This document shows, one piece after another, positions 3,135 through 56,033 of a DNA stretch of 64,000 nt; position 1 is the stretch's first letter, and the number at the start of each line of letters is the position of its first letter. The stretch is from an uncultured cyanobacterium. GTDB taxonomy: Bacteria > Cyanobacteriota > Cyanobacteriia > Cyanobacteriales > CAWUOF01. Location of the stretch: the NCBI GenBank assembly GCA_963744145.1, contig CAVUSO010000001.1, positions 6,272,001-6,336,000 on the forward strand. The letters run 5' to 3'. A program made the position numbers and the translations under genes. The notes beneath the pieces were generated by a model. It did not search any database. It was not told the DNA's origin and saw only the letters and a list, made by a program, of their open reading frames with translations.

Positions 3135-3719
3135 CTATAAGTCCTCAAAAATTGCATCGACACTAATTACTATGTCCGGAAATGAAAGAGGCGAGATCCT
3201 GTCACCGGGTCTAAATTGTTGGATACTTTCATAACCATTAGTGTTAGGATTGCGATAAACCTCAATTAATTGGGCTTCTATGTCTACGAGCCAAAGTTCA
3301 ATAATCCCAGCTCTACCATAAAGAACTGATTTCACATTACGATCATGGTCAACTGTAGTAACCGATACTTCAATTAGTAAATAGATGTCTTGGGTTTGGG
3401 GATGTGATTTTATGTAATCATCACCACGAGGTTTCAGGATTGATAGATCGGGTTCCGGTTCTAATCTTCCGTTCAACCTGATTGGGCTTTGAGTTGCGAC
3501 TAAAGCACGGTCATTTAAAAGTTTAGAAAATATTCTATCTAACCGAATTATGCACCCTGCATGACGACTACCCATTGGTGCCATATAAATAATATCCCCA
3601 TCAATTAGTTCTGTCCTACCATCCCCAAGCATCCCCAACTCACCCAGCTGGTAATATTCCTCTACCGTGAATTGCTTTCTTGTTGGTGTGGTTGCTACTG
3701 CGATCATCTTTCTCACCAT
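3135..3719 (-). CDS. Uma2 family endonuclease
   Basis: FTVEEYY, ELIDGDII.MAPMG..H, EPEPDL, LLIEVS, YGRAGIIELWLVD. Close paralogue of 36404-36988. Confidence 0.9.
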   Translation of the reverse strand: MVRKMIAVATTPTRKQFTVEEYYQLGELGMLGDGRTELIDGDIIYMAPMGSRHAGCIIRLDRIFSKLLNDRALVATQSPIRLNGRLEPEPDLSILKPRGDDYIKSHPQTQDIYLLIEVSVTTVDHDRNVKSVLYGRAGIIELWLVDIEAQLIEVYRNPNTNGYESIQQFRPGDRISPLSFPDIVISVDAIFEDL

Positions 3720-7727: not shown

Positions 7728-7979
7728 ATGGGAGAAGTAGAGATTGGGAAACTTGCATCCACCGAAACCATGTCAAAGCCGATTAGCATAGAGCCACATC
7801 TATCGTTAACCTCATTATACAAACAACCACACTAGCGGTTTAATTTGGCGATCGCCACTGGGGAAAATTTCTCAATCAGCGAGCGATCGATTCGGGTACT
7901 AAATATTGGGTGGAAGAATTTTAATAATGAATCAAACGACCGCACAAGAATTGATTAATTTAACAATGAGTATTTATAA

Positions 7980-8747
7980 TTACTTATCTTCAATATAAAT
8001 TGGCAATTTTTCCAAATCTGGCAATTTAACTAATTCTGATTCAGCTGGTTTATCCTTAACCTTAATTGGTAACATTAAAGGTTGAGGATATTCGATCCAA
8101 CAACTAGCCAAAGGTAGAGTTTGTTCCATTTCCTCCAATGGTCGAGGAATCACCATTAAAGTATTAAATTCACCAATTCTTTCTGCTTCATACATTCCTG
8201 CTTCCACAGCGACCACTACATTAGCTACTGTGCCACGAATAATAGCAGTACATAATCCATTCCCGATCGTTTCATAAGAAGCTAAATGAACTTCTGCGGA
8301 TTTGAGCATCGCATCACAAGCACCTACCATCGCGGGAAAACCGCGTGTTTCTAACAAACCGATTGATTGATTACTTAAACGACTATGGGCACCTTGAGCT
8401 AATTGATTCAAACGATTCCCAATCGGTAATACTGCTTCCAGATTAGGTAAAGGACGAGCAATCACTAAAGTGGAAACTAATTGACCGAACTGTTCTGCGG
8501 TTTTCAACCCAGCATCAACCGCTAAACGTACATCAGCAATCCGACCACGTACTATTGCAGTGCAGTAACCACTACCAATTTTTTCATAGCCAACTAAAAA
8601 TACTCCAGCCGACTTTAGCATTGCATCCGCAGTACCGACGATCGCCGGAAAACTGCGGGTCGATACTAATCCTAGAGCCATTTCACTCACATTAACCAAC
8701 TGTGGCGATCGCTCGTAAGTCCGCCGATCTTGATTTTGGACTTCCAT
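7980..8747 (-). CDS. ccmO: Carboxysome tandem-BMC protein CcmO
   Basis: Two BMC domains (ALGLVSTRSFPAIVGTADAMLKSA; IGLLETRGFPAMVGACDAMLKSA). Last gene of the ccm operon. Confidence 0.95.
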   Translation of the reverse strand: MEVQNQDRRTYERSPQLVNVSEMALGLVSTRSFPAIVGTADAMLKSAGVFLVGYEKIGSGYCTAIVRGRIADVRLAVDAGLKTAEQFGQLVSTLVIARPLPNLEAVLPIGNRLNQLAQGAHSRLSNQSIGLLETRGFPAMVGACDAMLKSAEVHLASYETIGNGLCTAIIRGTVANVVVAVEAGMYEAERIGEFNTLMVIPRPLEEMEQTLPLASCWIEYPQPLMLPIKVKDKPAESELVKLPDLEKLPIYIEDK

Positions 8748-8804
8748 CTCAAACCTCTGGTAATCAGATATTTCACCTAACCATCAGCATATCAATCTAT
8801 TTAG

Positions 8805-9443
8805 CTAGATGTGGGGTGATTGACCATTGAGATCGGTTGGTTGCTGAGGTTGATGATGGGGAAATAATGTCACCCGGAGTTGACTCAGATGTTTATAAGC
8901 ATAAATCTGACCCGCAGATCCGGGAGTAGATGCTGGGGTTGATCTGTCTGCTGTGACATCTTCAGGAATAGGAGGGACTTGTGGTGGGAGCGGATCGGTT
9001 GTGAGAGGATGATCAACCTTAATTGACTCATCTTCTGTGATGATGGGTGACTCATCTCCTGTCGTGGGAGATAAAGATTCCCTAATTTCACGTCCATGAT
9101 CTCCCCACAAGGAACCAGCACTTAATACTTGCGCTTTTTCCAGGGAACAATTGAGAATAGTGCTTCCTGTACCAATACAAGCATTTGCGCCAATTTTGAC
9201 ATTGCCGACCACCAGCACTCCTGCGCCAAGGGTTGCTCCAGTTTCCACTTCAATACTACCCTGGTGAGCGTGCAGAACTGCACCCATCCCAATACAAACA
9301 CCAGCAGCAATGACAATGTGACAATCTGGATCGGCTTGGAGAATTACTCCTGTGGCGATCGCGGCACCTTCGGCAATATTAACATCGCCACTCGCATAAT
9401 ACTGGGAGTTACCAAGGAACGGTCGTAGTGGCGACAAATACAT
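8805..9443 (-). CDS. ccmN: Carboxysome assembly protein CcmN
   Basis: Hexapeptide-repeat N-terminal domain, Pro-rich linker, C-terminal peptide IYAYKHLSQLRVTLFPH. Alternative GTG start at 9455. Confidence 0.92.
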   Translation of the reverse strand: MYLSPLRPFLGNSQYYASGDVNIAEGAAIATGVILQADPDCHIVIAAGVCIGMGAVLHAHQGSIEVETGATLGAGVLVVGNVKIGANACIGTGSTILNCSLEKAQVLSAGSLWGDHGREIRESLSPTTGDESPIITEDESIKVDHPLTTDPLPPQVPPIPEDVTADRSTPASTPGSAGQIYAYKHLSQLRVTLFPHHQPQQPTDLNGQSPHI

Positions 9444-13082: not shown

Positions 13083-14933
13083 ATGAATGAATTTCTCCTC
13101 CAAACAAGTTGGTGGGTGCCTTGTTATGGCTTAATTGGTGCAATTTTAACCCTACCTTGGTCGATCGGGATGATTCGACGGACTGGACCAAGACCAGCAG
13201 CTTATTTTAATCTATTGATGACAGTTATAGCTTTTATCCATGGCGGGATCGTGTTCCGCATGACCTGGAATCAGGAAAATATTCAGATCATCATTCATTG
13301 GTTAAAAGCAGCAGATTTAGACTTATCGCTGACCTTAGAAATTTCTGCCGTTAGTGTGGGGGCAATGGAGTTAATTACTGGGTTAAGTTTATTAGCTCAG
13401 TTATTTGCGATCGGATATATGGAGAAAGACTGGGCGCTAGCTCGTTTTTTTTCCTTGATGGGATTTTTTGAAGGGGCGATGAGTGGGCTGGTGTTAAGTA
13501 ATTCCTTATTTCTTAGCTATGCTTTGTTAGAAATGCTCACGCTATCAACTTATCTATTAGTCGGATTTTGGTATGCTCAACGGTTGGTAGTGACAGCAGC
13601 AAGAGACGCATTTCTCACCAAGCGGGTAGGAGATATATTATTGCTAATGGGAGTAGTCGTATTAGCAACTCAAGCAGGAAGTTTAGATTTTCCTGATTTA
13701 TATGAATGGGTAGAGACTGCGAATTTATCTCCACTGACCGCCACATTACTAGGGTTAGCTTTAATTGCTGGACCGACAGGTAAATGCGCTCAATTTCCCC
13801 TACATATGTGGTTAGATGAAGCCATGGAAGGACCAAACCCAGCTTCATTATTGCGAAATTCCGTGGTAGTCAGTAGCGGTGCCTATATTCTGATTAAACT
13901 TCAGCCGATCTTGGTGCTTTCCCCTGTCGCTTTAAATACTTTAGTGGTGATTGGGACAATGACAGCCATTGGGGCTTCAATGGTAGCGATCGCCCAAATC
14001 GATATCAAACGAGCCCTATCCCATTCTACCAGCGCCTATTTGGGGATGGTATTTATTGCCGTAGGAATGCAATGGACAGATGTGGCTTTAATGCTACTCT
14101 TTACCCATGCGATCGCCAAAGCACTCTTGTTTATGAGTGTGGGTTCGATTATTCTCACTACTAATAATCAAGACTTAACTCAGATGGGCGGTTTGTGGTC
14201 GCGGATGCCCGCTACTACTACTGCTTTTATTGTCGGTTCATTTGGTTTAGTTGGGTTCCTACCTTTAGGGGGTTTTTGGTCTTTCCTGAAAGCCGTAGAG
14301 ACTTTTTGGATTCAACAACCTTGGTTAGTAGTCGTGTTTTTACTGGTCAATTGTTTAACCGCTTTAAACCTCACCCGTGTATTTCGTCTGGTATTTTTAA
14401 GTAAATCTCAAGAAAAAACCCGCAGAACACCGGAAATTGCTTGGCCAATGGCAGTGCCCATCGTAACTTTAATTATCGTTAACCTGTTAGTCCCGTTAAT
14501 GATGCAGTCGCTATTAATATTGCCAGATTGGAATTACATCAATTATCAGATTGTTGTCCTGATCATATTATCTGGTGGAATTGGGATTTTTTTAGGAGGA
14601 ATTGTTTATCTTAATCGTACCTGGGCTAGACCCCTATTAATTCCGTTGCGATTTCTGCAAGATTTCTTAGCTTATGATTTTTACATCGATCGTCTCTATC
14701 GGGTCACGGTAGTATTTGCTGTGAGTAAATTTTCTCAAATCAGTGCTTGGATTGACCGCAATGTGATCGATGGATTAGTAAATCTAGTAGGAATCGCAAC
14801 TATTTTCAGTGGTCAAGGCTTAAAATATAACGTTTCTGGTCAGTCACAACTTTATATACTGACAATTGTTTTAGGAGTCAGTCTGTTGTTAATTGCCATT
14901 GCTACAGGTGGTAATTTCGGCATCGGTTTTTAG
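13083..14933 (+). CDS. ndhF4: NDH-1 CO2-uptake subunit NdhF4
   Basis: RRTGPRPAAY, FLTKRVGD, GKCAQFPLHMWLDEAMEGP. Clustered with ndhD and a short cup gene next to ccm. Confidence 0.92.
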   Translation: MNEFLLQTSWWVPCYGLIGAILTLPWSIGMIRRTGPRPAAYFNLLMTVIAFIHGGIVFRMTWNQENIQIIIHWLKAADLDLSLTLEISAVSVGAMELITGLSLLAQLFAIGYMEKDWALARFFSLMGFFEGAMSGLVLSNSLFLSYALLEMLTLSTYLLVGFWYAQRLVVTAARDAFLTKRVGDILLLMGVVVLATQAGSLDFPDLYEWVETANLSPLTATLLGLALIAGPTGKCAQFPLHMWLDEAMEGPNPASLLRNSVVVSSGAYILIKLQPILVLSPVALNTLVVIGTMTAIGASMVAIAQIDIKRALSHSTSAYLGMVFIAVGMQWTDVALMLLFTHAIAKALLFMSVGSIILTTNNQDLTQMGGLWSRMPATTTAFIVGSFGLVGFLPLGGFWSFLKAVETFWIQQPWLVVVFLLVNCLTALNLTRVFRLVFLSKSQEKTRRTPEIAWPMAVPIVTLIIVNLLVPLMMQSLLILPDWNYINYQIVVLIILSGGIGIFLGGIVYLNRTWARPLLIPLRFLQDFLAYDFYIDRLYRVTVVFAVSKFSQISAWIDRNVIDGLVNLVGIATIFSGQGLKYNVSGQSQLYILTIVLGVSLLLIAIATGGNFGIGF

Positions 14934-14968
14934 GAAAATATCCACTTAATAAAAAGTTCCAAATAATT

Positions 14969-16453
14969 ATGCTCAGTGTTTTAATTGGGGTGCCATTATT
15001 AGGTGCCGTTGCGATTGGATTTTGGCCAGGAAATAGCGCAGCGAAGAACTACCGTTTGATGGCTTTAGCGATCGCGATCAGCTTATTATTCTGGACATTA
15101 ATGATCGGATTTAAGTTCAATCCAGAAATCTCCGGAATGCAATTTTCTGAGAATATTCCTTGGATTGATGCTTTAGGTTTAACCTATAACATTGGCATTG
15201 ATGGGTTATCTTTACCCCTAATGATTTTAAATAGTTTACTAACTTGTATTGCTATTTATAGCAGTGATAGTAGTATAGTTAGACCCCGGTTTTACTACTC
15301 GCTAATCTTAATATTAAATGCGGGAGTAGTCGGTGCATTTGTAGCCCAAGACTTACTGTTATTTTTCCTATTTTATGAACTAGAACTAATTCCCTTGTAT
15401 TTATTAATTGCGATTTGGGGTAGTGCTAATCGAGGCTATGCTGCGACCAAATTCCTTTTGTATACAGCAGTTTCGGGAATTTTAATTCTCGCTTCATTTT
15501 TGGGAATTGTTTGGTTGAGTGGTTCTACTACCTTTGCTTTACAAACAATCGATGTAACCAATCTGAATGAGAAAACACAATTGTTATTACTGGCAGGACT
15601 TTTAATCGGTTTTGGGATTAAAATTCCTTTAGTACCTTTTCATACTTGGTTACCAGATGCTCATGTAGAAGCTTCCACCCCTGTTTCAGTTTTACTAGCA
15701 GGGATACTATTAAAACTAGGTACTTATGGGATCATCAAATTTGGCTTAGGATTATTACCTTTAGCTTGGACAATTCTAGCGCCTTGGTTAGCAGTTTGGG
15801 CAGCAATCAGTGTAATTTATGGCGCTCTAAACGCGATCGCTCAAAAAGATATGAAAAAGATGGTAGCTTTTTCATCAGTTGGGCACATGGGTTATATTCT
15901 GCTAGCTGCAGCTGCTGCGACTCCACTTAGTCTAATTGGAGCGATCTTCCAAATGATTAGTCATGGACTAATATCTGGACTCCTATTTTTATTAGTGGGA
16001 GTTGTTTATAAAAAAACTGGGACTCGCGATTTAGATTTACTGGAAGGTTTGTTAAATCCAGAAAGAGGAATGCCAGTAATTGGTAGTCTAATGATCATGG
16101 GAGTAATGGCAAGTGCAGGAATTCCTGGGATGATTGGTTTTATTGCTGAATTTTTAGTATTTCGAGGTAGTTTTCCAGTATTTCCAGTACCAACAATCAT
16201 ATGTATGGTAGGAACTGGTTTAACTGCGGTATACTTTCTACTCTTAATCAACCGCGCTTTCTTTGGTCGTCTTTCAGCCCAAGCAAAAAATTTACCACCA
16301 GTTTTGTGGAGCGATCGCATTCCCTCAGTAATTTTAGCATTATTGATCATTATTTTAGGATTACAACCAAGTTGGATAGTTTTCTTAAGTGAGAATTCCC
16401 TCACTGCAATGGTCAATCAGAGTAAAGCGATCGCCCAAATCACAAATATATAA
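14969..16453 (+). CDS. ndhD4: NDH-1 CO2-uptake subunit NdhD4
   Basis: NuoM motifs FYELELIP, PFHTWLPDAHVEA, LLNPERG. Confidence 0.92.
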   Translation: MLSVLIGVPLLGAVAIGFWPGNSAAKNYRLMALAIAISLLFWTLMIGFKFNPEISGMQFSENIPWIDALGLTYNIGIDGLSLPLMILNSLLTCIAIYSSDSSIVRPRFYYSLILILNAGVVGAFVAQDLLLFFLFYELELIPLYLLIAIWGSANRGYAATKFLLYTAVSGILILASFLGIVWLSGSTTFALQTIDVTNLNEKTQLLLLAGLLIGFGIKIPLVPFHTWLPDAHVEASTPVSVLLAGILLKLGTYGIIKFGLGLLPLAWTILAPWLAVWAAISVIYGALNAIAQKDMKKMVAFSSVGHMGYILLAAAAATPLSLIGAIFQMISHGLISGLLFLLVGVVYKKTGTRDLDLLEGLLNPERGMPVIGSLMIMGVMASAGIPGMIGFIAEFLVFRGSFPVFPVPTIICMVGTGLTAVYFLLLINRAFFGRLSAQAKNLPPVLWSDRIPSVILALLIIILGLQPSWIVFLSENSLTAMVNQSKAIAQITNI

Positions 16454-17947: not shown

Positions 17948-19231
17948 ATGTCTACCCAATTTAAAGCCGAAGTCTTTCAAAACCAATACCTACCCCAAGG
18001 TGCTTCAGAAGTCCATGCGATTATGACTGTGACCGTTGCAGGAGACGAAGGGATAGCCGCCCCTACTACTAATAATAGCAAAGTCTTTGGGATAATTTGT
18101 GATACCTCTGGCTCAATGCAAGGTCAAAAGATCCATGCAGCCAAAGAAGCGATCGCCAAAATCGTCAACTTATTACCCAATGATGCGGCATTTTTTATCG
18201 TCACAGGTTCAGGTATAGCCCGGGTAACTTGGTCCATGTCTCCAGCGACCCCTGAAAATAAACAACAAGCGATCGCAGCTCTCAAAAAAAACGATGCTAG
18301 CGGTGGTACGATTATTTCCCGATGGCTATCAGAAGCATTAAAAGAATTTGAAAAAATGCCCAATAGTGTCCGTCAAGCCTTACTATTGACAGACGGACAA
18401 AACGACGACTCAGACGAACAAAACCTCCTGAAAGTTCTGCAACAATGTGAAGGTGTTTTTCAATGTGACTGTCGAGGTGTAGGTACAGATTGGAGAGTCA
18501 AGCAACTACAAGTAATTTCCCAGAAACTTTTGGGTACTACCGACATAATTCCTAACGCAGCTATGATCGAAGCTGACTTCCAGAATATTCTGCAAAAAGC
18601 AATGACAAAAAGTGTCAGCGATGTAGCATTGCGTTTGTGGAATCCCCAGGGAGCCCAAGTATTATTTTGTAAACAAGTTAGCCCAGAAATTGTTGACTTG
18701 ACCCATCGCGCTAAAACTGTTAAACCTCAAGTATCAGACTATCCAACTGGTGCTTGGGGGAAAAATGAATCTCGTGAATATCATTTCTGCATTCAAGTCA
18801 AACCGGGTAATATCGGTGATGAAATGTTAGCAGGTCGAGCTAGCCTAATTTATACCCTAAACGGTGTAGAAAATAAGGTAGCTGAAGCTCGCATTTTGGC
18901 AGTTTGGACTGACGACGATGCAAAATCAACTAAAATTGATAAACGGGTTGCCCACTATACTGGACAAGCTGAACTAGCTCAGTCTATTCAAGAGGGACTA
19001 GAAGCTCGTGCGAGTGGTGATCTAGAAGTTGCTACGGTTAAATTGGGGAAAGCGGTGAAACTTGCCCATGAATCGGGTAATGAAGCAACAGCAAAACTCC
19101 TCAAAAAAGTAGTTGATATAGAAGATGCAGCCACGGGCACAGTAAAAATTAAACGCGATATTGCCAAAGAAGACACAATGGCACTAGAAACCCGTTCCAC
19201 CAAAACTACTCGCATTCCCAAGTCTTCTTAA
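17948..19231 (+). CDS. von Willebrand factor A (vWA) domain protein
   Basis: MIDAS DTSGSM...GGT...LLTDGQN. N-terminal EVFQNQYLP and C-terminal LETRSTKT. Confidence 0.9.
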   Translation: MSTQFKAEVFQNQYLPQGASEVHAIMTVTVAGDEGIAAPTTNNSKVFGIICDTSGSMQGQKIHAAKEAIAKIVNLLPNDAAFFIVTGSGIARVTWSMSPATPENKQQAIAALKKNDASGGTIISRWLSEALKEFEKMPNSVRQALLLTDGQNDDSDEQNLLKVLQQCEGVFQCDCRGVGTDWRVKQLQVISQKLLGTTDIIPNAAMIEADFQNILQKAMTKSVSDVALRLWNPQGAQVLFCKQVSPEIVDLTHRAKTVKPQVSDYPTGAWGKNESREYHFCIQVKPGNIGDEMLAGRASLIYTLNGVENKVAEARILAVWTDDDAKSTKIDKRVAHYTGQAELAQSIQEGLEARASGDLEVATVKLGKAVKLAHESGNEATAKLLKKVVDIEDAATGTVKIKRDIAKEDTMALETRSTKTTRIPKSS

Positions 19232-19251
19232 TTAATCCTTAAAGCCTAGCT

Positions 19252-19941
19252 ATGTCTATCTACAAATGTCCAAAAGGTCACCAATCAACGGAGTCTGATT
19301 ATTGTTCTGAATGTGGTGTGAAAATTCCGGGGATCAATGAATCTACTGCGATCCCCAGTCTCGAAGCATCAACAATACCAGCATCTATTTCTCAGGTCAT
19401 CAATTGTCCTGATTGTGGTGCAATCTACGCAACAGGTAGTGGTAACTTCTGCGAAATTTGCGGTTATAACTTTATCACTGGGGCCGATGGTGAACTTCCT
19501 CTGGATTCATCAGCAATTTTCCAACCTAATTTAGGGTCATCCTCAGCCCCCAGTACCCAAACCCCAATAATTCATTGGGAATTAGTCGCTACCATTGATT
19601 CATCCTTGGGAAATGCTAACAGTCCTCCACCTCCGCTCAATCAACCTGCGATTACTTTTCGTTTAGATAAGGAAACTAATTTGATTGGACGTAGTAGCAA
19701 GCTAAAGGGTATTCGTCCAGAAATTTCTTTAGATTTTGATGATGCGGTTTCCCGTCGTCATGCCTTACTAATTCGTCAATTAGATGGTAGCTTCATTTTA
19801 CGTGATATTGGTTCTGCTAATGGTACGAAATTAAAAGGTGTAGAATTACAGCCCATGGTTGATGTCCCGATTAAAGAGGGTGATCAATTTACTCTCGGAC
19901 ATTGGACAAGAATCACGGTCAAAGTTATTCGTTTACCGTAA
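19252..19941 (+). CDS. Zinc-ribbon plus FHA domain protein
   Basis: CPKGH..CSECG, CPDCG..CEICG. FHA motifs IGRS, VSRRHA, DIGSANGT. Confidence 0.92.
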   Translation: MSIYKCPKGHQSTESDYCSECGVKIPGINESTAIPSLEASTIPASISQVINCPDCGAIYATGSGNFCEICGYNFITGADGELPLDSSAIFQPNLGSSSAPSTQTPIIHWELVATIDSSLGNANSPPPPLNQPAITFRLDKETNLIGRSSKLKGIRPEISLDFDDAVSRRHALLIRQLDGSFILRDIGSANGTKLKGVELQPMVDVPIKEGDQFTLGHWTRITVKVIRLP

Positions 19942-22712: not shown

Positions 22713-23288
22713 TTAATCAATATTACCCACAGCCAAAACTTGCTCAACGGTAATAGATAATTCTGGAAATGTTTGAGAAACAATTGGTAGACTTTCTGTA
22801 AAAACAGTTTCTTCATACAATCCCTCTACTAAAAGTAGCACAGTAATCTGATTTTTCAGCGGATCTACAATCCAATATTCAGGAATTTCTAGTGCCCCAT
22901 ATTCAGAACGTTTATAACGATAGTCTCGATTTATTGATTCAGGACTAACGACCTCAACAGCTAATAAAGGGGGAATTTCAGCAATAGCAGAGCGATCGAG
23001 AAATTCCCGCACCTGTTCAACAGTTATTATATAAAGATCAGCTAATCTTGATTTCCGCCATCCAGTTCTAATTCCTGCTTCTCGAAAACAGAGCCAAGGT
23101 AACCCTAAACGTTTGATTTCCGCCTTAAAATTGTCGTGAAGAAAATCAGTAATTAGCAAATGTCTAAATGTGGGTGGGTTCGCCAATTCTAATCTCCCAT
23201 CAACCAATTCATAACGGCGATCTGTACCATCATTATAGGTGAGATATTCCTCAAAACTATATTGCTGTTCAGCAGTTGTTACAGTCAT
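22713..23288 (-). CDS. Uma2 family endonuclease
   Basis: RYELVDG, LAVEVVSP..RDYRYKRSEY..IPEYWIVDP. Confidence 0.9.
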   Translation of the reverse strand: MTVTTAEQQYSFEEYLTYNDGTDRRYELVDGRLELANPPTFRHLLITDFLHDNFKAEIKRLGLPWLCFREAGIRTGWRKSRLADLYIITVEQVREFLDRSAIAEIPPLLAVEVVSPESINRDYRYKRSEYGALEIPEYWIVDPLKNQITVLLLVEGLYEETVFTESLPIVSQTFPELSITVEQVLAVGNID

Positions 23289-28472: not shown

Positions 28473-29261
28473 TCAAATAATCTCATCAGGATTTACTCCC
28501 ATTGCTCGTAAGTGAGCAGCTAGTTTTTCAGCTCTCTGTTGAGCTTGTTGAGCTTGGAGTTGAGCTTGTTGAGCTTGTTGTTGAGCTTGTTGAACTTGTT
28601 GTTGAGCTTGTTGAACTTGTTGTTGAGCTTGCTGGGTATCTTCTTGTGGAGTCGGGAGCAAACCTCCTGGTAACGTAGCCCAACGTAGCCAAGTAGCCTC
28701 AACACCTTTATAATTACCTTGCCAACGTACCAATGCTAAACCTAAATGTCCACTGATTAATCGTCCTTTTTCATCCCTATTTAGAGGTTGATATACTCCT
28801 TTTTCTAAGCTAAATCCAGCCCAATCTTCAGGATTAAATGGATCATACCAAAAATATTCGGGAACTCTGACCTGATCTTGATACACTTGCTTTTTTTCAG
28901 TTTTGTCTTTGCTAGCTGTACTCTCAGAAATCAGTTCAATGATTACATCTGGTGCTTTCCCTTCATCCCAAACCACCCAACTGAGTCTTTCACCTTTAGG
29001 TACTCCTAGCACTACAAAGACATCCGGTCCTCGAAAATCTTGATTTTTAACTTGATCTATACTAAAATAGAGGTACATATTGCCGCCCACATAGCCATCC
29101 TCTCGCTTATGCAACCACGGGATTAAGGGATCGATCAACATTTCCATCTGAAGTTTATGTCGCTGGGTTTCCATAGGAATACCATCATCACAGGGAAGAT
29201 CGTACTGGGTTGGTGGTAGAGTTAAAGCAATGGAGGTTGATGCCGGAATCGGTTTAGACAT
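28473..29261 (-). CDS. Uma2 family endonuclease with a Gln-rich coiled-coil tail
   Basis: PMETQRH, GPDVFVV, PDVIIELISEST, VPEYFWYDP. 21-bp tandem repeat at about 28538-28633. Confidence 0.9.
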   Translation of the reverse strand: MSKPIPASTSIALTLPPTQYDLPCDDGIPMETQRHKLQMEMLIDPLIPWLHKREDGYVGGNMYLYFSIDQVKNQDFRGPDVFVVLGVPKGERLSWVVWDEGKAPDVIIELISESTASKDKTEKKQVYQDQVRVPEYFWYDPFNPEDWAGFSLEKGVYQPLNRDEKGRLISGHLGLALVRWQGNYKGVEATWLRWATLPGGLLPTPQEDTQQAQQQVQQAQQQVQQAQQQAQQAQLQAQQAQQRAEKLAAHLRAMGVNPDEII

Positions 29262-29321: not shown

Positions 29322-30716
29322 ATGAGTAATAAAATAGCAGTTTCAAATCATTTGAAAACCCCCCCATCAGCGATCGCTAAATTAAATACTCCACAATTAA
29401 TTAAAGCTGGATTATCTCTAACTTGGGGAGCTAGTTTTTTGCTGCTGATTACTACCTTATCAGGAATACAATCCGCGAAATTAGCGATAAAAACTGTCGG
29501 GAAAGATGCAGCACCCAGTATTGAAGCAGCCCAGTATATTAAAGCTGGATTAGCTGATATGGATGCCAATATAGCTAATGAATTAATTGAGCAACCTGGA
29601 CAAAATCAGAGTGCAGTTAAAGCTTATGGAGAGAGACTTGAGAAAGTTACTACAAAATTGATTACTGCTGCGGAAAATATTACATACGGAGATGCTGAAC
29701 GGATACCGATTCAAACCTTACAAATACGATTAAGTGATTATATTGCCAAAGTTCAACAAGCACGAGACTTTCATCAGCGTCGCGATTTAGCTGGGGTTTT
29801 GAATGCTTATCGAGCATCAGCTGAATTGATTGATCAGAAACTTTCTCCTGCGGCTGATCAACTATTAGCGGCTAACCAAGAAGCACTTAATCGTACCTAT
29901 GAACAGCAGTGGGGCACTTCAGTTCGATCGCTTTTTTTTATTATTATCTCTACCCTGATCTTGTTAGGCACATTGATAATATTGCAATTATTTCTTTATC
30001 GTCGGATGCGCCGGATTATTAACCCCATGTTGTTAACAGCTACAGCGATCACTTTACTCTTTTTCAGTTATATCACATCTGCCCTATTGTCAGCATCTAA
30101 TCACCTCAAAATTGCTAAACAAGACGCATTTAATTCGATCGATGCTCTGTGGAAAACTCGCGCTCTAGCTTATAGTGCTAATGCTGATGAAAGTCGATAT
30201 TTACTTGATCAAGCTCGTGCTAATAATCACCAACAGGCTTTTTTAGCCAAAATTACTAAACTCGCTAATATACCAACTGGTCAAACTTTTGCTACTGTAG
30301 CATCAGCTTTTGCCAATAATCAAAAAGTAGATAACTTTACCGGATTCTTAGCTGATGAGTTAAACAATATTACTTTTGCTGGTGAAAAAAAATCTGCCCT
30401 GAATGCGCTAGAGGAATTGGGTCTATATGTAACCATAGATCAAAAAATCCGTCAACTTCAACAAACCGGTAAATCTAATGAAGCGATCGCTCTTTGTACT
30501 GGTAATAAACCAGGGGAATCTAATTGGGCATTTAACCAGTTCGATCTTGCTCTGCAAAAAACCTTAGATATTAACCAACAAGCTTTTGACCAAGCAGTTG
30601 ACCAAGGATTCAAGGATGTAGAAGGTTTTGAAATTATCATCCCGATTGTGACTATTGCGATCGGACTCCTTACTCTCTTGGGACTGCTACCACGTTGGCA
30701 AGAATATTCTCGCTAA
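29322..30716 (+). CDS. Four-TM membrane protein with two helical extracytoplasmic domains (GlnX-like)
   Basis: TM1, helical domain (AGLADMDANIAN), TM2-RRMRRIINP-TM3, second helical domain (ANADESRYL), TM4 ending GLLPRWQEY. Recognised by eye as resembling actinobacterial GlnX. Confidence 0.7.
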   Translation: MSNKIAVSNHLKTPPSAIAKLNTPQLIKAGLSLTWGASFLLLITTLSGIQSAKLAIKTVGKDAAPSIEAAQYIKAGLADMDANIANELIEQPGQNQSAVKAYGERLEKVTTKLITAAENITYGDAERIPIQTLQIRLSDYIAKVQQARDFHQRRDLAGVLNAYRASAELIDQKLSPAADQLLAANQEALNRTYEQQWGTSVRSLFFIIISTLILLGTLIILQLFLYRRMRRIINPMLLTATAITLLFFSYITSALLSASNHLKIAKQDAFNSIDALWKTRALAYSANADESRYLLDQARANNHQQAFLAKITKLANIPTGQTFATVASAFANNQKVDNFTGFLADELNNITFAGEKKSALNALEELGLYVTIDQKIRQLQQTGKSNEAIALCTGNKPGESNWAFNQFDLALQKTLDINQQAFDQAVDQGFKDVEGFEIIIPIVTIAIGLLTLLGLLPRWQEYSR

Positions 30717-36403: not shown

Positions 36404-36988
36404 TTAGCGATTAATCCATAGAATCTCGTCAACAGCGATCGCCACATCCCTAAAAGCTAACGGTGAGATAGTATCACCGCGTCTGAATTGTTGAATACTC
36501 TCATAACCATTAGCGCTGGGAGTGCGATAAACTTCGACCAGTTCGGCTGGTATATTTACGATCCAAAGTTCAATAATTCCAGCTCTGGCATAGAGGACTG
36601 ACTTAACATTACGGTCATCGTCAATGCTGGTATCCGCTACTTCAATCAATAAATATACGTCTTGAGGCTGTGGGTGCGATTCGGTGTAAAAATCAGCGCG
36701 ACGTTTCAGAATTAATAGATCGGGTTGCGGTTCAAATTGTCCATTTAATCTAACTGGAGTTTGTGATGTGACTGTAGCCCGTTTACCCAAAGCGTCAAAG
36801 AAAATTTCCAACAACCGCGCAATACAACCCCCATGACGACTACCCATCGGTGCCATATAAACGATATCCCCATCAATTAGTTCTGTCCGTTCATCCGCTC
36901 CAATGATCCCAACCTCTCCCAGTTGGTAATATTCCTCTACCGTAAATTTTTTTCGCTCTGTTGCTACTAAAGACATCATCCTTACCAT
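36404..36988 (-). CDS. Uma2 family endonuclease
   Basis: FTVEEYY, EPQPDL, LLIEVADTS, YARAGIIELWIV. Confidence 0.9.
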   Translation of the reverse strand: MVRMMSLVATERKKFTVEEYYQLGEVGIIGADERTELIDGDIVYMAPMGSRHGGCIARLLEIFFDALGKRATVTSQTPVRLNGQFEPQPDLLILKRRADFYTESHPQPQDVYLLIEVADTSIDDDRNVKSVLYARAGIIELWIVNIPAELVEVYRTPSANGYESIQQFRRGDTISPLAFRDVAIAVDEILWINR

Positions 36989-37187: not shown

Positions 37188-37994
37188 ATGATCCAACAAC
37201 TCCAACCAGAAATCATCTATCCTGAGAGCGACGGTCAACCGATGGCTGATAATACTGAACAATTTAACTGGATTGTGATTATTAAAGAGAATTTAGAAAG
37301 ATTATTTGCTGGGATAGTTAATGTCTTTATCGCGGGGAATCTGCTCTGGTATCCAGTTCAGGGAAGTTTACAATCGATGGCACCCGATGTCATGGTAATC
37401 TTTGGGAGACCAAAAGGTAAACGCGGCTCTTATCAACAATGGCTCGAAGAAAATATTCATCCTCAAGTCGTCTTTGAAATTTTGTCTCCCAGCAATAAAG
37501 CTACCGAAATGTCTAATAAATTCCTATTGTATCAACAATATGGGGTGGAAGAATATTATATTTATTATCCCCAACGAGTCGAATTGAGTGGCTTTTTGCG
37601 TCGAGGAGATGTCTTAGAAGCGATCGACCAGATCCAAGGGTGGGTTAGTCCCAGATTAGGAATCAGATTTGAACTCACACCAGACACTTTAGAGATTTAT
37701 CGTCCCGATGGAGAAAAATTTCTCACCTCGATCGAACTCGATCAACTTACTCAACAAGAGCGTCAACGCGCTGAACAAGAGCGTCAACGCGCTGAACAAG
37801 AACGTCAACGCGCTGAACAAGAACGTCAACGTGCTGAACAAGAACGTCAACGTGCTGAACAAACTATGACCCAGCTTGAGCAAGAACGTCAACGTGCTGA
37901 TCAAACTATGACTCAGCTTGAGCAAGAAAGACAGAATTATCAAGATTTACTGGCACTATTGCAAGCCAAGGGTATTGATTTAGAAAAATTATAG
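37188..37994 (+). CDS. Uma2 family endonuclease with an (EQERQRA)n tail
   Basis: YPESDGQPMADNTEQF, APDVMV, VVFEILSP, GVEEYY. 21-bp tandem repeats at about 37753-37927. Confidence 0.9.
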   Translation: MIQQLQPEIIYPESDGQPMADNTEQFNWIVIIKENLERLFAGIVNVFIAGNLLWYPVQGSLQSMAPDVMVIFGRPKGKRGSYQQWLEENIHPQVVFEILSPSNKATEMSNKFLLYQQYGVEEYYIYYPQRVELSGFLRRGDVLEAIDQIQGWVSPRLGIRFELTPDTLEIYRPDGEKFLTSIELDQLTQQERQRAEQERQRAEQERQRAEQERQRAEQERQRAEQTMTQLEQERQRADQTMTQLEQERQNYQDLLALLQAKGIDLEKL

Positions 37995-47062: not shown

Positions 47063-50000
47063 ATGAACAACGCCAAAGTCAGAATTTACGATCTATCAAA
47101 GGAATTGAATTTGGATAATAAGGACATATTGGCCGTTTGCGATCAGCTAAATATTGCGGTCAAAAGCCATAGCAGCACGATTACAGAATCAGAGGCGGAG
47201 CGGATTCGCAATACGGCTGCCAAAGTAGTGGCCAACCACTCCCCTCGTCGCAGTGCCAGCAGTGCAGCCCCACCCGCCGTTCCTGCTAAACATCGGGACC
47301 ATTCTCTCCCAGCAGAGTCCGCCTCGCGGCCAAATGTACGCAAAAAACAAGAGATTTTGGAGGTTCGTCAACTGCCAACTCCCCGCCCAGGGCCTAATCC
47401 CAAACCCCAGGGAGAAGGGGGTGGGGCAAAACCATCGGGGTTAGCTCCTGTCCCTCCCCAGCCCCCAGCCAGTCAGCAAATGTCAGCATCTATGAAGCCG
47501 GCGGCACCAAATCGACCTGTATTACAAAAATCCGTACTCCCTAATACCCCCCCCATAGGAGAGCCTGTCAGTTTGCCCGATCTTGACCAAGAAGAGGTCG
47601 AGATGACGCTATCAGCAGAGGGTGAAACCAAATCGGAACTGGTTAACCCCCCACCAAGACCAGTGATAACGCCAAATCGTGGTTTATTGACTGGTGCTAA
47701 TCGACCAGTTTTAAAAAAGGCCAAGACTGAAAAACCGGAAAAGACATCCAGCGATTCAGTGGCTACACCCCCACCGCCCACCCGTTCCGAGAATGCACCA
47801 GCACCGAAAAAGCCTCGTAATCGTAGTAATCAACAATCAGGTGCATCGGAACGTCATCCCATTGCAGCACCAAATTTGGAACTGCATCGACCGCGACCAG
47901 TTCTTAAACTGGAACGCGATCAGGTAGTTCCGGAAATTCCGACTACCCCAGCCCGGGATGTTGATTCTGAACCTGATGACGATTTACTCATCCTCAATCG
48001 ACCGACCCCACCACGTCCACCAAAACGGGCGAAAAAACGGGAGGAAGAAGATGATGATATGACCGAATTGGGCGATAAAAGCCTGAAAGCTGGTGCGAAA
48101 GCCAAACGACGGACGAAACCAGCTATTGACGATGACGATGATGATTTTGAAAGTGATCTGGATGAATTGGGTGCAACGGTGCAGGTAAGTCTATCTGTTG
48201 CCCGTCCAGCTAAACCCAAAGGTCGTCCAGCAGCGGCTGTTGCTACCCTCGCTCCGACGGCTAAAGGTCCTGAAGTTGGCCAGTTCCCAACGGGCGGCGG
48301 AAATGTCCAAAGCTGCTCGTCGGGAACGTCGTGAACAAGCTGGCAAAAAAGAACGTCCAGAACTGATTACCCTGACGGGGCCACTAACTGTTCGAGAATT
48401 GGCGGCGGTAATGGTGATCCCGGAAACAGAAATTGTGAAAAAGCTGTTTTTTAAGGGGATGGCAGTCCAAATTACCCAAACCTTGGATGTTCCTACTGCC
48501 ATGATGGTGGCTGAAGAACTAGGAGTTTTGGTAGAAACGGCAGCACCAGAATCAGAAGCAATTAAATCCACAGAAATGCTGGATGCGGAAGACATGGAAA
48601 GTCTTCAACGTCGTCCACCAGTAGTGACAATTATGGGTCACGTTGACCATGGGAAAACTACTTTGCTTGACTCCATTCGCAAAACGAAGGTGGCGCAAGG
48701 AGAAGCAGGTGGGATTACTCAGCATATTGGTGCTTATCATGTTGATGTTGAGCATAATGGCGAAACTCAACAAATTGTCTTCCTTGATACTCCTGGTCAC
48801 GAAGCCTTTACGGCCATGCGAGCGCGTGGGGCAAGGGTGACGGATATTGCGATTCTGGTGGTGGCAGCAGATGATGGTGTTCAACCCCAGACCATTGAAG
48901 CGATTAGTCACGCTAAAGCGGCTGAAGTGCCGATTATTGTGGCTATTAATAAGATCGATAAAGAGGATGCTAATCCCGATCGCGTTAAACAAGAGTTAAT
49001 GGCTCATAGTCTGGTTTCGGATGAATGGGGTGGTGATACCACGATGGTGCCGGTCAGTGCGATCCGCGGTGAAAACTTGGATACCCTGCTGGAAATGATT
49101 CTTTTGGTCGCAGACCTAGAAGAATTATCAGCTAATCCCGATCGCTCAGCCCGAGGAACGGTGATTGAAGCTAACTTAGATAAATCTCGCGGTCCGGTAG
49201 CAACTCTATTAGTCCAAAATGGCACCCTCCACATTGGTGATATCCTGGTGGCAGGTTCGGCGATGGGTAAGGTCCGGGCGATGATTGATGACCGGGGACA
49301 CCGTGTCGAAGTCGCTGGTCCCTCTTTTGCCGTAGAAGTCCTTGGTCTGGGGGATGTGCCCGCAGCTGGGGATGAGTTCGAGGTGTTCCAAAATGAGAAA
49401 GAAGCTCGGGCGATCGCCGAAGCTCGCGGTGAGGCTCAACGTCAATCTCGTCTGCTTCAAGGTCGAGTTACCCTTAATACCCTCTCGGCTCGCGCTCAAG
49501 AAGGTCAGCTGAAGGAACTCAATTTGATTCTGAAAGCGGATGTCCAAGGTTCCGTGGAAGCGATTATTGGTGCCCTCAGACAACTGCCCCAAAATGAAGT
49601 GCAATTACGTGTTCTCTTAGGTGCCCCAGGCGAAATCACGGAAACTGATATCGATTTGGCTGCGGCTAGTGATGCGGTAATTATTGGCTTCAATACTACT
49701 CTGGCTACAGGAGCGCGGCAAGCAGCTGACCAAACTGGTGTAGATGTGCGCGAATACAATATCATCTATAAACTGTTGGATGATATCCAAGGTGCCATGG
49801 AAGGTCTGCTCGAACCGGAACTGGTGGAAGAATCCCTCGGTCAAGTTGAAGTCCGACAAGTATTCCCCATTAGTAAAGGAGCTGTCGCTGGTTGTTATGT
49901 TCTGTCTGGTAAAGTGATCCGCAACTGTAAAGTCCGGATTCGCCGCAGCGGTAATGTGATCTATGAAGGTACTCTTGATTCACTCCGACGCATGAAAGAA

Positions 50001-50129
50001 GACGCTAAAGAAGTCAATGCTGGATATGAATGTGGGATTAGTATCAATAATTTCCATGACTGGGCGGAAAATGACATTATGGAAACCTTCCGGATGGTAG
50101 CAAAACGTCGCACCTTATCTCCTAATTAG
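47063..50129 (+). CDS. infB: Translation initiation factor IF-2 with an apparent +1 frameshift at about 48270
   Basis: N-terminal [11 protein letters not shown] in ORF 47063-48334; G-domain [17 protein letters not shown] in ORF 48198-50129. Confidence 0.93.
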
Positions 50130-51871: not shown

Positions 51872-54800
51872 TTAATTACCTTCAATTACTGCTTCTGCTG
51901 CAAGAGCGATCGCTCGTAATTTATCTAACATTAGATGATCCACTTCTTCCCACAAACCACGCTGATGCGCTTCTAATAATCTTTCCGCAATATCTCGTAA
52001 AGCCCAAGGATTTTTTTCCTGAATGAATTGCTGTACAGTTGAGTCAAGTAAGTAAGCTTGTGCTATTCCTGTATACATAAAATCCTCTACACAACTAGTA
52101 GTAGCATCATAAGCAAATAAATAATCTACTGTTGCGGACATTTCAAAAGCTCCTTTATAACCATGACGCATTACTCCAGCAATCCATTTGGGATTAATCA
52201 CTCGACTCCGATATACTTTAGCTATTTCTTCTTTTAAATGACGAATTTTTGGATTACTAGGGAGGGAATTATCTCCAAAATAAATTTCTGGATTTTGACC
52301 ACTAATCGCTCTGACTGCTACCGTTAAACCACCCTGAAATTGATAATAGTCATCCGAATCAAGTAAATCATGTTCACGGTTATCCTGATTATGGAGAACA
52401 ACTTGCAGATCTTTTAAACGTTGGATAAATGCTTCGGGAGCTGATACTCCATCCTCTCCGACTCTGGTAGATGTATAAGCATAAGAACTCCAGTTAATAT
52501 AAGCGCGAGCTAAATCTTGCTCATCAGTCCAATTTTGTGCTTCAATTAAACCCTGCAATCCCGCTCCATAAGCACCTGGTTTAGAACCAAAAATCCGATA
52601 ACTCGATCGCATCTGCGCTTGTTCTGGTGTTAATCCTGCATTCTCCCACATTTTCCGTTCTTGTTTTACCTTTGCAGCTAAAGGATTTTCCTCGATCGGT
52701 TCATCTAATTCAGCTACTACTCTGACCGCGCGATCGAATAAATCGATTAAATTCGCAAAAGCGTCTCGGAAAAAACCAGAAATTCGCAAAGTGACATCTA
52801 TTCTTGGACGTCCTAAAGCAGAGAGAGCGATAATTTCTAGATCGATCACCCTTCTCGATGGTCCGATCCCAAACTGGTTGTACTCCCAACAATGCGATCG
52901 CTTCCGCAATATCATCACCCCCAGTTCTCATGGTGGAAGTTCCCCACACTGATAACCCGACTGTTTTTGGATATTCTCCATGTTCTTGGACGTAACGTTC
53001 AATCAAATTCTCTGCTGCAATTTTACCTACACTCCAAGCAGTTTCCGTCGGTATTGCCCGAATATCAACTGAATAAAAATTAACACCTGTCGGTAAAACA
53101 TCTGGACGACCCCGGGTTGGGGCTCCAGCGGGACCACTAGGGACATAATCACCATTTAATCCGCGTAAAAGATTAACTATTTCTTGATTAGTTTGTTGTA
53201 GTGCTGGAAGTAAGCGATCGCTAATCCACTGTAATTCCCGTTGAGTGTGAATATATTGGTGTATATTAATACTTGGTAATGATTGGTGGATTAACTCTTC
53301 TACTAATTCAGCCGCTTTTTCTTCTAAAACTGCAATTACATCACTAATTCGCGTCCAAGATTGGTCAAAAATAGTAATTGGGGAGCTAGTTAACGTGAGA
53401 TCAACTGTCAACGGATCGAAATCTAACCCTAAGTCTTGAGCTAAAGCACGAGTAATTCCCAAACGTTCCTTTCCAGGATGACGCGCGATCGCGACAATTA
53501 AATCTCGAAGCTGACGACCCTGGGGACATTGACCAAAAATATGCAATCCATCCCGAATTTGTGCTTCTTTCAATTCACACAAATAAGCATCAAGTCGATT
53601 TTCAAGTAGGGATTTGTGATGGTTAACTTCTGCTAGCTTAATCCCTAAATCTTGATCGAGTTTTTCTTGAATCACTAATTGCACAATCCGTTCACGAATT
53701 AAGGGTAATCGGGATGGATCTAAACTTTCAGCTTGATAGTATTCATCCATCAGACTTTCTAACTGTTGTAACGGTCCATACAACTCAGCTCGAGTCATGG
53801 GAGGAGTTAAGTGATCAATAATAACTGCGTTAGCTCGTCGTTTTGCTTGAGATCCTTCTCCTGGATCATTAACAATAAAGGGATAAAAATGAGGTAAACA
53901 ACCATGAGCTACTTCCGGATAACATTGAGCGGATAAAGCTACACTTTTACCAGGGAGCCATTCTAAATTTCCATGTTTACCTAAATGGACAATTGCATGA
54001 GCGCCAAAATTTTCTCTAATCCAATCATAAAAAGCTAAATAAGCATGGGGAGGTTCTAAATCAGGAGCATGATAATTTAAACTCGGATCAAGATCATAAC
54101 CTCGACTTGGTTGAATCCCGACAAATATATTACCTAATTGGATACCCGCGATCGGAAATTTTTCCTGTTCCTGTGGTAAAGACCAGCGATCGCTAATTCC
54201 CGTTTGGACTGCCATGGGTAAAGTGGCAAAATAGGTTTGATATTCTGTTAAAGTAAGATATTGCCGGACCGATCGCAACTCTTTCCCTTCTGGATCATTA
54301 GTTACTCCAGAGGTTAAATCTTTAATTAACTCATCTCCGGAATTAGGTATATGATCAATGTCATAACCATTTACCCGTAATGCTTGCAGAATTTCGATAC
54401 AACTAGCAGGAGTATCTAACCCAACTCCATTAGCTAAACGTCCATCACGACAGGGATAATTAGCTAAAATTAGGGCAATTTTTCGGTTACTTGGTGAGGT
54501 TAAACGCAATCGGACCCAGTTAGCTGCTAAATCTGCAACAAAATTAATCCGCTCTAAGTGGGGAACATAACCTACCACATTAGTTTGCAATACTGGATGC
54601 CAATTTTGGACAGCTTTAAAAGAAACTGCTCGACTAATAATATTCCCATCGACTTCTGGAAGTGCGATATTAATCGCTAGATCACGAGGAGAAAGTCCGT
54701 GAACACCTGACTCCCACTGGAATAAGGTTTCACTACTAAAAATTACTTGTAGTGTCGGGATATTGAGTCGGGAAAATAGGGGAGGAGCGGAAACTAATTT

Positions 54801-55652
54801 TTTTCCCCGATCATTTACTCCGAGATGATCGTGATGCAAATTTCCACTGATGGAAAAACTTGTGGTATTCAGTAATAGCTGAATCGGAGTCGAATCGGTT
54901 GGTTGGAAATATTGAGCAAGTTCAGCTTGGATCTCTGGAGTCCGTAACGAAGAGACAAAGACGGGAATCGGTTGTAATTTTCGGGTGAGCAACTCTTGAC
55001 AAAGTGCATCAATCGGCGCTAGGTTGCCTGCTAAATAGTGAGCGCGATAAAAGATAATTCCGACTTTAGGATATAATAAATGGGTAGGAATGGCTTGATT
55101 CGGCCCAGAATAAAGCCCAAACTGAGGAATTGGTTGGGGATGTGGAGGATGATAGGATTCGCGATCGCAAACATCAGCGACAAATTTTAGAGCATTGAGG
55201 AAATTATCTTTACCACCTTCGGCAAAATAGCGCCAAATTTGGTTAACTATGGGTAGGGAAACTGTGGAGTGACTAATTAAATCGGGATCTGGGTGATCAT
55301 CTCCGGGAATCACAATTAAAGCAGCACCGGTGGTTTGGACTGTCTCTTTTACTACTTCTAAACCATAGGACCAGTAAGATCGACCACCGAGCAATCGCAA
55401 AATAATAATCCTTGCTTGAGCTAAAACTGATTCAGCATAATGATCAATGCTTAATTGTTGTTGTAGCTGTAGAATATTCACAGCTCGCAGATTCCTTAAA
55501 GATTCTGGTAAATGGGGGATTACCGTAGCTAGGGTTTGAATATCTGTATCCGCAGCTGTCAGAAAGATCAGAGGAGCTGGAGTTTGGTTAATGAAAATTA
55601 TTCCTTCTGCTGGGAGATTCTCTGTCCCAGCTGCGATCGCGAAACGATGCAT
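51872..55652 (-). CDS. cobN: Cobaltochelatase subunit CobN with an apparent frameshift at about 52865
   Basis: GKHGNLEWLPGK, LPTGVNFYS, HNQDNREHDLLDSDDYYQF, NPKWI. One extra base splits VQPVWD|GPSRRV. Confidence 0.93.
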
Positions 55653-56033
55653 GATCTTGTCCTTTTGGGGTGATCCCACCAGCTAATAACATATAGTCCC
55701 AATTCTAAATGTAATTTGATTTACCAAAGTAATTATGTTTTCTTAAACTTTTACTTACCGCTACAGATGTTAACGTCGATGTATAGATAATTCTAAATTT
55801 GGAACCTTGTCTATTTCAGGAGGATCTCAAGTCCGGGTTTAGGGTGTGATCATCTAGATTACTAGCTAAACACAAACATCTGATTGGTAAAGCCCCATCT
55901 TACCATAAGAGAAATATTTCCCTTATGCGTCTGTTTGGCTCTATTTGACCAAATGTTTAGTGTCCAGGGGTCTGGTCTTTTCCTATCCCCAGGAAAATGC
56001 TCAGTAACTGAAATCCACTTTAACCCATGGCTA

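Follow-up and report, generated by a model that had tools for sequence, protein, structure and literature searches.

The open reading frame (ORF) at 29322-30716 (+) of the window, the 64-kb stretch of cyanobacterial DNA analyzed here, encodes a 464-aa GlnX-family membrane protein that almost certainly belongs to a conserved six-gene module made up of OrfA, PknG, PP2C, vWA, zinc-ribbon FHA, and GlnX. We propose that GlnX is the likely sensor that switches the kinase PknG in this module, which is divided among three loci in this genome, and we put the probability of the proposal as a whole at roughly 0.6.

A GlnX-family membrane protein with two helical bundles

The protein matched the NCBIfam model of the GlnX family, NF058618, with 281.4 bits against a cutoff of 250 (residues 22 to 462; model positions 2 to 412 of 413), and it failed the strict equivalog model for PknG-activating GlnX, NF041460 (49.9 versus 780 bits; E value, 2e-13). 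Its features are as follows.

29322..30716 (+): GlnX-family membrane protein, 464 aa, with four predicted transmembrane (TM) helices and two four-helix bundles (NF058618; AlphaFold2 model)
29484..29909 (+): first four-helix bundle, residues ~55-196, predicted periplasmic, with an N-I-T-Y-x-x-x-E motif (4HB_MCP_1, E 8e-6)
30000..30026 (+): basic loop RRMRRIINP, predicted cytoplasmic, a candidate kinase-docking surface (conservation, charge bias)
30105..30617 (+): second four-helix bundle, residues ~262-432, a duplicate of the first, with an N-I-T-F-x-x-E motif (halves align at 98.2%)
30681..30707 (+): C-terminal motif G-x-x-P-R-x-x-E-Y, residues 454-462, predicted cytoplasmic (conservation)

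Hydropathy analysis revealed four hydrophobic stretches (residues ~26-49, 197-229, 232-259, and 432-460), of which the first and third were weak, with peaks of 1.6 to 1.75 versus 2.74 for the other two. The N- and C-terminal halves were homologous to each other (hhalign probability, 98.2%; E value, 3e-13), the Pfam family 4HB_MCP_1 matched the first bundle slightly below its cutoff, and an AlphaFold2 model built with 148 sequences was essentially all-helical (mean pLDDT, 96.0; pTM, 0.91). The TM/helical/TM-loop-TM/helical/TM arrangement given in the preliminary description thus agrees with hydropathy, internal repeat, and model alike, and the predicted topology has the four TM helices and duplicated four-helix bundles of the GlnX helical tandem module presented in the available text of PMC9769921. 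When the model was compared with 48,161 PDB representatives in a VIA-align fold search, the best match was the LytS sensor domain (5XSD; Z, 18.0; rmsd, 1.4; 120 residues aligned); NasR (Z, 17.3; rmsd, 4.0) and MCP2201 (9KUP; Z, 16.2; rmsd, 1.9; 132 aligned) were matched as well, and the second bundle matched the ligand-binding domain of Vc1313 (8BSA; Z, 13.8; rmsd, 2.0; 156 aligned). LytS and MCP2201 are also the fold matches given for Corynebacterium glutamicum GlnX (PMC9769921, available text). Neither the protein nor its alignment retrieved anything meaningful in sequence searches of the PDB, and with Foldseek the whole model had no match with an E value of 0.001 or better. Judged by profile and model, the ORF is a member of the named GlnX family and a predicted tandem four-helix-bundle sensor, as had been surmised.

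Two short segments are predicted to face the cytoplasm. The loop RRMRRIINP (residues 227-235) and its counterparts in 148 homologues contained on average 3.4 Lys/Arg and 0.03 Asp/Glu residues, a strong basic bias that fits the predicted cytoplasmic location; R231 was found in 144 of the homologues and N234 in 138. In the tail GLLPRWQEY (residues 454-462), conservation extended to G454 (145 of 148), R458 (146), E461 (145), and Y462 (141). Positions conserved at 90% or more made up 5/17 of loop plus tail and 9/142 and 17/171 of the two bundles. In this alignment, from which fusion proteins were excluded, 145/148 homologues ended within 5 residues of Y462, which bears out the earlier statement that the protein has no cytoplasmic output domain. 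The motif of the first bundle was present in 127/148 homologues, with E126 in 146/148, and that of the second was present in 132/148. The loop and tail motifs also occurred in family members of the actinobacteria Nonomuraea, Embleya, and Streptomyces; the preliminary description had put forward a likeness of these motifs to those of actinobacterial GlnX.

Upstream of glnX, at a distance of 9.4 kb and eight ORFs, is a vWA-FHA gene pair (17948-19941). The glnX gene is flanked on one side by a divergent Uma2 gene and on the other by a putative sigma-factor gene. A promoter/terminator scan was at chance level (10 versus 7.7 +/- 2.7), with no promoter signal above chance.

Across the window, Uma2-type genes, the one divergent from glnX included, were seen six times (1286-1879, 3135-3719, 22713-23288, 28473-29261, 36404-36988, and 37188-37994), four of them Pfam-confirmed and two recognized by likeness. 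Both the IF-2 gene (47063-48334 and 48198-50129) and the CobN gene (52710-55679 and 51872-52918, minus strand) show up as a pair of overlapping ORFs whose frames differ, reflecting either real frameshifts or assembly indels.

A six-gene module, clustered in relatives and split in the host

Using the genes beside relatives' glnX as queries, we located OrfA, PknG, and PP2C in a row at C1:1988295-1992976 of the host genome, ~4.3 Mb before the window. The kinase (C1:1989824-1992001; 725 aa) is a true PknG: PknG_TPR, PknG_rubred, and Pkinase were all over cutoff (PF16918, 232 bits; PF16919, 63 bits; PF00069, 110 bits), and it matched Mycobacterium tuberculosis PknG (2PZI) over residues 78-723 with an E value of 4e-132. 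Beside it, the PP2C gene encodes a 315-aa zinc-ribbon protein. Both the PknG-type kinase and the PP2C that the preliminary description had postulated are therefore present. Catalytic or binding residues are conserved in the kinase, the PP2C, the vWA MIDAS, and the FHA domain, and all six host ORFs are full length and 48-79% identical to clustered orthologues.

OrfA, a sixth conserved gene missing from the set originally proposed, is an ORF of 423 codons, whose product is 401 aa long when counted from the start codon that we used. It matched no Pfam or NCBIfam family, and its sequence retrieved only generic coiled coils from the PDB. Its model is a helical rod (pLDDT, 90.9; pTM, 0.69) whose top match, EzrA 4UY3, was weak (Z, 11.8; rmsd, 4.7; 159 aligned); this match and that to 4UXV (Z, 11.1; rmsd, 7.3; 322 aligned) both fell below Z 13, the caution level for helical proteins. 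Pfam EzrA was found in 2/79 OrfA members, with an Atlas row at 0.83.

Phylogenetic profiling tied these genes together. Among 301 cyanobacterial genomes drawn evenly from the phylum, GlnX, PknG (threshold, E 1e-70), vWA (E 1e-40), and OrfA (E 1e-15) each occurred in 6, the same six including the host; these are not independent, as four of the other five belong to one family. The vWA proteins of the six are 60-79% identical. In all 5 other positive genomes, the genes form one same-strand cluster, orfA-pknG-pp2c-vWA-FHA-glnX, with the FHA gene directly upstream of glnX and with some variations: G145 is without pp2c, G267 has one inserted gene and G191 three, and the PknG of G038 consists of two ORFs, one for the kinase part and one for the TPR part (L013, where 13822-15982 and 7809-9242, both on the minus strand, are the regions of this split PknG and of the binding-protein gene 23 nt after glnX). 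Because of this adjacency in 5/5 genomes and the exact co-occurrence, we regard the link between glnX and the vWA/FHA pair as real. The preliminary description had staked its proposal on likeness to GlnX and on co-occurrence with the vWA/FHA pair and a PknG-like kinase, and both were found. Its term "dispersed" is apt for the host genome, with its three loci, and fails as a general description, since the genes normally stand together in a single cluster.

Among 61 nearer relatives, NF058618 was over its cutoff in the host genome and in G301; in G302 the gene is cut over two contig ends. G302 has the full six-gene order, and G301 keeps pp2c-vWA-FHA-glnX together and pknG on a separate contig. 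A scan of GTDB contigs with the GlnX protein gave two loci, one real (L001, with vWA-FHA-glnX at the contig start) and one spurious (a match of only 27 residues).

We also sampled metagenomes, taking the best 80 of 213 confirmed GlnX matches; we derived the search patterns from 13 close homologues, so that the sample favors this clade and under-represents GlnH-linked actinobacterial forms. An FHA gene was present in 53 of the 61 loci with enough upstream DNA, and all six genes were present in 15/80 loci, again counted in the best 80 of 213. These 15 showed two gene orders, the cyanobacterial one (7 loci) and vWA-FHA-glnX-orfA-pknG-pp2c (8 loci), in which orfA directly follows glnX. G+C content ranged from 38 to 77%, and a named taxon was obtained for the P0216 cluster only (Planctomycetaceae/Isosphaeraceae). 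A Nonomuraea record carries the six genes followed by a gene for a GlnH-like lipoprotein. For 29 paired loci, the trees of PknG and GlnX, the latter a quick one, showed the same deep split (Spearman, 0.82); this agreement indicates joint inheritance, not contact, and shared descent alone can produce it.

Gene fusions pointed in the same direction. The GlnX module was found with an N-terminal Ser/Thr kinase (P0189 and P0221, the latter identified from its sequence alone) and with a C-terminal SpoIIE-type phosphatase (P0258), and because it is naturally fused to a kinase or phosphatase, a role for it in phosphorylation control is supported. In P0180, the module is fused to a partial vWA domain, which may be an assembly chimera.

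GlnX-family genes can also stand alone, as indicated by the 8/61 informative metagenome loci with glnX and no FHA gene and by plasmid-collection records, of which 3/4 matches were counted as stand-alone and 2/3 examined had no partner within 10 kb. Those two are an Embleya (L052:9890-11596) and a Streptomyces (L053:9530-11263) plasmid record; the neighbors in the latter are, we presume, cation/proton antiporter-like and KdpD-like. Four related contigs (L058-L061; G+C, 0.44-0.45) have glnX without an FHA gene, possibly representing a second dispersed lineage, and in three of them the gene upstream of glnX is what we take to be haem oxygenase-like.

The proposed phospho-switch and its possible signals

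The features of the output side of the window are as follows.

17948..19231 (+): vWA protein with an intact MIDAS and an ArnB-type C-terminal helical domain (PF13768 and PF18571 over cutoff)
19205-19207 (+): codon of T420, a candidate phosphosite of the vWA protein (invariant in 41/41 homologues)
19252..19941 (+): double zinc-ribbon FHA protein, 20 nt after the vWA gene (PF00498 over cutoff, DZR under)

PF18571, which we take to be the ArnB_C entry IPR040929, scored 73.3 bits against a cutoff of 25.8. The MIDAS residues D52, S54, S56, T121, and D149 are conserved, and in the tail, ETRSTKTTRI, T420 was found in 41/41 homologues and T418 in 95%, with R422 also conserved; the conservation of T420 may be structural. 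The vWA protein matched 4FX5 over its full length (E value, 1e-105) and ArnB (8S05) over the vWA domain only (E values, 3e-9 and 8e-19 in two comparisons). In its FHA partner, residues G146, R147, S167, H170, and N190 were conserved in at least 85% of 52 homologues, and the CxxC...CxxC ribbon was conserved in 51/52. This protein failed the OdhI model NF041660 (25.3 versus 200 bits), and the string ETT[ST], which we looked for as a presumed mark of GarA/OdhI-type FHA proteins, occurred in 1/52 homologues. Going by these sequence features, the FHA protein is not of the GarA/OdhI type that had been suggested and looks like archaeal ArnA instead. In the archaeal system, according to the available text of PMC12852372, threonines in the C-terminal helical bundle of ArnB are phosphorylated and are then bound by the FHA domain of the zinc-finger protein ArnA. 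The window pair has the corresponding parts, a vWA protein with MIDAS and helical domain and a zinc-finger partner with phosphothreonine-binding FHA residues.

Multiple phosphorylation in the C-terminal part of a cyanobacterial vWA protein, Synechocystis Sll0103, is reported in the available portions of PMC4379935, PMC10243305, and PMC10651672. Its phosphopeptides resemble a host paralogue (C1:1996542-1997801), not the window vWA protein, whose BLAST match to this Sll0103-like paralogue covers residues 49-251 only. The paralogue is one of two tandem Sll0103-like vWA genes (C1:1995266-1997801; L035:15266-17801, minus strand) that lie 2.3 kb from pp2c on the opposite strand, beside clpP-type genes, and their tails are threonine-rich too. 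Another vWA-FHA-PP2C-kinase cluster, distinct from the module and including an AAA+-like gene, is located at C1:1286798-1294000 of the host genome.

We hypothesize that the outside bundles of GlnX sense a signal, which may be a small molecule that they bind themselves or a binding protein whose gene lies elsewhere, and that this signal would shift the bundles, so that the cytoplasmic loop and tail, possibly by docking on the TPR domain of PknG (a contact likewise only proposed in actinobacteria), would alter the activity of the kinase. PknG might then phosphorylate the vWA protein on threonines close to its C terminus, with T420 as the candidate, and this would tighten the vWA-FHA complex as in archaeal ArnB/ArnA; PP2C would reset the phosphorylation, and OrfA, a predicted rod of three-helix repeats, could serve as the scaffold. 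That GlnX acts upstream of PknG is quite probable, and that the vWA and FHA proteins form the output switch is somewhat favored. Counting against this switch is the restriction of the likeness to ArnB to the vWA domain, and the vWA-tail proposal is also weakened by the Esr pathway, in which, according to the available text of PMC13622651, it is the FHA protein that becomes phosphorylated and forms the output.

GlnX needs GlnH in actinobacteria, as described in the accessible parts of PMC6069109, PMC9769921, and bioRxiv 10.64898/2026.07.02.735984, and the preliminary description accordingly expected a GlnH partner and external amino acids as the signal. Were the module a classical amino-acid sensor, a binding protein of an ABC transporter encoded elsewhere would double as GlnH, and nitrogen/carbon metabolism would be tuned as in Corynebacterium and Mycobacterium. 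The GlnH-like gene after the Nonomuraea cluster fits this idea, as do the three SBP_bac_3 genes of the host genome, the activation of LytS, the best fold match, by a binding protein, and the unrelated binding-protein genes that closely follow glnX in G038 (Peripla_BP_6, after 23 nt) and L082 (PBP_like_2, after 11 nt), which may reflect chance or a swappable input. However, no glnH was found beside any of the three host loci or in the 5 other genome clusters, and a GlnH-like (SBP_bac_3-type) gene was present in 0/80 metagenome loci (best 80 of 213), 45 of which had at least 1 kb of downstream DNA. The best matches of the Nonomuraea GlnH-like protein in five cyanobacterial genomes were only 22-32% identical; none of the host SBP_bac_3 genes lies near the module, and the closest of them opens an ABC-transporter operon. 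A GlnH acting in trans may exist, although only generic binding proteins were found in the five genomes; we rejected the L082 protein as a partner in trans, as it is of the phosphate-binding type and occurs in 112/301 genomes with no tie to the module. With the FHA protein not of the OdhI type either, we consider the classical pathway unlikely here; the expected GlnH partner was not found, and amino acids as the signal, which lose support with it, are a doubtful though conceivable choice. The N-I-T-[YF]...E motif, kept in both bundles, is absent from the GlnH-linked Nonomuraea GlnX, a single case that serves as a lead only. Speculatively, and with rather low confidence, the GlnH-less six-gene module could be the widespread core of PknG signaling, with GlnX as a single-chain, pseudo-dimeric receptor, sufficient by itself, that would bind a ligand of its own via these motifs and drive a bacterial ArnB/ArnA-type phospho-switch. 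If so, GlnH and GarA/OdhI of Mycobacterium and Corynebacterium would be lineage-specific add-ons, and the cyanobacterial module would be a non-pathogen model for passing a signal across the membrane to a kinase without a membrane anchor.

Sensing of envelope stress or threats, with GlnX reporting membrane damage or contact to a vWA/kinase/phosphatase cassette of the Esr or TerY-P type, would suit the patchy distribution (6/301). Two gene neighborhoods would also suit it: a TelA gene lies just before vWA in 5 metagenome loci that have the second gene order (L073, L074, L078, L081, and L093), and a PspA/IM30 gene comes right after glnX in 2 loci (L064 and L116). Esr itself is presented in the available text of PMC13622651 as threat sensing via vWA, kinase/phosphatase, and zinc-finger FHA proteins. 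We nevertheless judge this explanation improbable: there was no conserved MoxR or effector gene among the ORFs of the clusters read, TelA was not found in the host genome with two queries or beside the cyanobacterial clusters, and the module proteins are well conserved across genomes, unlike fast-evolving conflict sensors. Finally, the cluster might have been broken up in this lineage and the host glnX might no longer work with the other five genes. Since glnX adjoins no partner in this genome, it may be loosely coupled or drifting, and the three separate loci, the nearby Uma2 genes and transposases, the lack of a promoter signal above chance, and the split PknG of G038 would all be in keeping with decay. 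Yet the six full-length ORFs retain their motifs and their identity to clustered orthologues, and G301, of the same family as the host, also keeps pknG apart from pp2c-vWA-FHA-glnX, so a relic is a very remote prospect. We therefore prefer the reading in which GlnX is the sensor of a working six-gene module.

Relation to known signaling systems

How the signal passes from GlnX to PknG is still an open question, in a pathway described as largely actinobacterial; in the accessible text of PMC9769921, GlnX-PknG interactions are proposed, not demonstrated. A conserved version that has GlnX, PknG, and four further genes and no GlnH or GarA/OdhI allows the core parts to be told from the rest in a naturally occurring system. 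The vWA tail threonine, the zinc-ribbon FHA protein, OrfA, and a dedicated PP2C are candidate new partners of PknG, and a cyanobacterial Ser/Thr kinase thereby gains a likely sensor upstream of it and a likely substrate. Our literature search (main texts, mostly outside subscription journals) turned up neither the six-gene module nor a cyanobacterial GlnX, and no experiment on any of the cyanobacterial members. PknG homologues in Calothrix and Ktedonobacter are noted in PMC8546545, the available text of which mentions neither GlnX nor a six-gene cluster. The NCBIfam entry NF058618, of which the window protein is a member, is a protein model and is silent on the six-gene context or a missing GlnH.

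The closest relative is the GlnH-GlnX-PknG-GarA/OdhI pathway of Mycobacterium and Corynebacterium. As far as the available texts of PMC6069109, PMC9769921, PMC8546545, and bioRxiv 10.64898/2026.07.02.735984 describe it, it has the same type of GlnX, with 4 TM helices, a duplicated four-helix bundle, and no output domain, and it shares a PknG with rubredoxin, kinase, and PknG-type TPR domains as well as the presence of an FHA protein. The system described here differs in that no GlnH partner was found, in its double zinc-ribbon FHA protein in place of GarA/OdhI, in the extra conserved genes (OrfA, PP2C, vWA, and FHA), in its cyanobacterial host, and in its three loci. Of the gene set first proposed, then, kinase, PP2C, vWA, FHA, and GlnX were found and GlnH was not.

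On the output side, the counterpart is ArnA-ArnB of Sulfolobus acidocaldarius, which likewise pairs a vWA protein (MIDAS, beta-sandwich, and C-terminal helical domain, with threonines near the C terminus) with a zinc-finger FHA protein, a Ser/Thr kinase, and a phosphatase. The enzymes differ, being the ArnC kinase and a PP2A phosphatase in Sulfolobus (PMC12852372) and a PknG-type kinase and PP2C here; moreover, the sequence match is limited to the vWA domain, and in the cyanobacterium a membrane sensor is attached and there is no archaellum. Esr (PMC13622651) and the Deinococcus DRA0331-0334 operon (bioRxiv 10.64898/2026.01.23.701218) also combine a vWA protein, a Ser/Thr kinase, a phosphatase, and an FHA protein in one cassette; their texts, to the extent available, name neither GlnX nor PknG. 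Esr has a MoxR protein and a beta-propeller surface sensor and is described in the available text as confined to Actinomycetes. No MoxR AAA+ ATPase or beta-propeller sensor was seen among the ORFs that were read in and beside our clusters. Set against these systems, the module is apparently an undescribed extension of the known GlnX-PknG pathway, its new parts being the GlnH-less form and the split into three loci.
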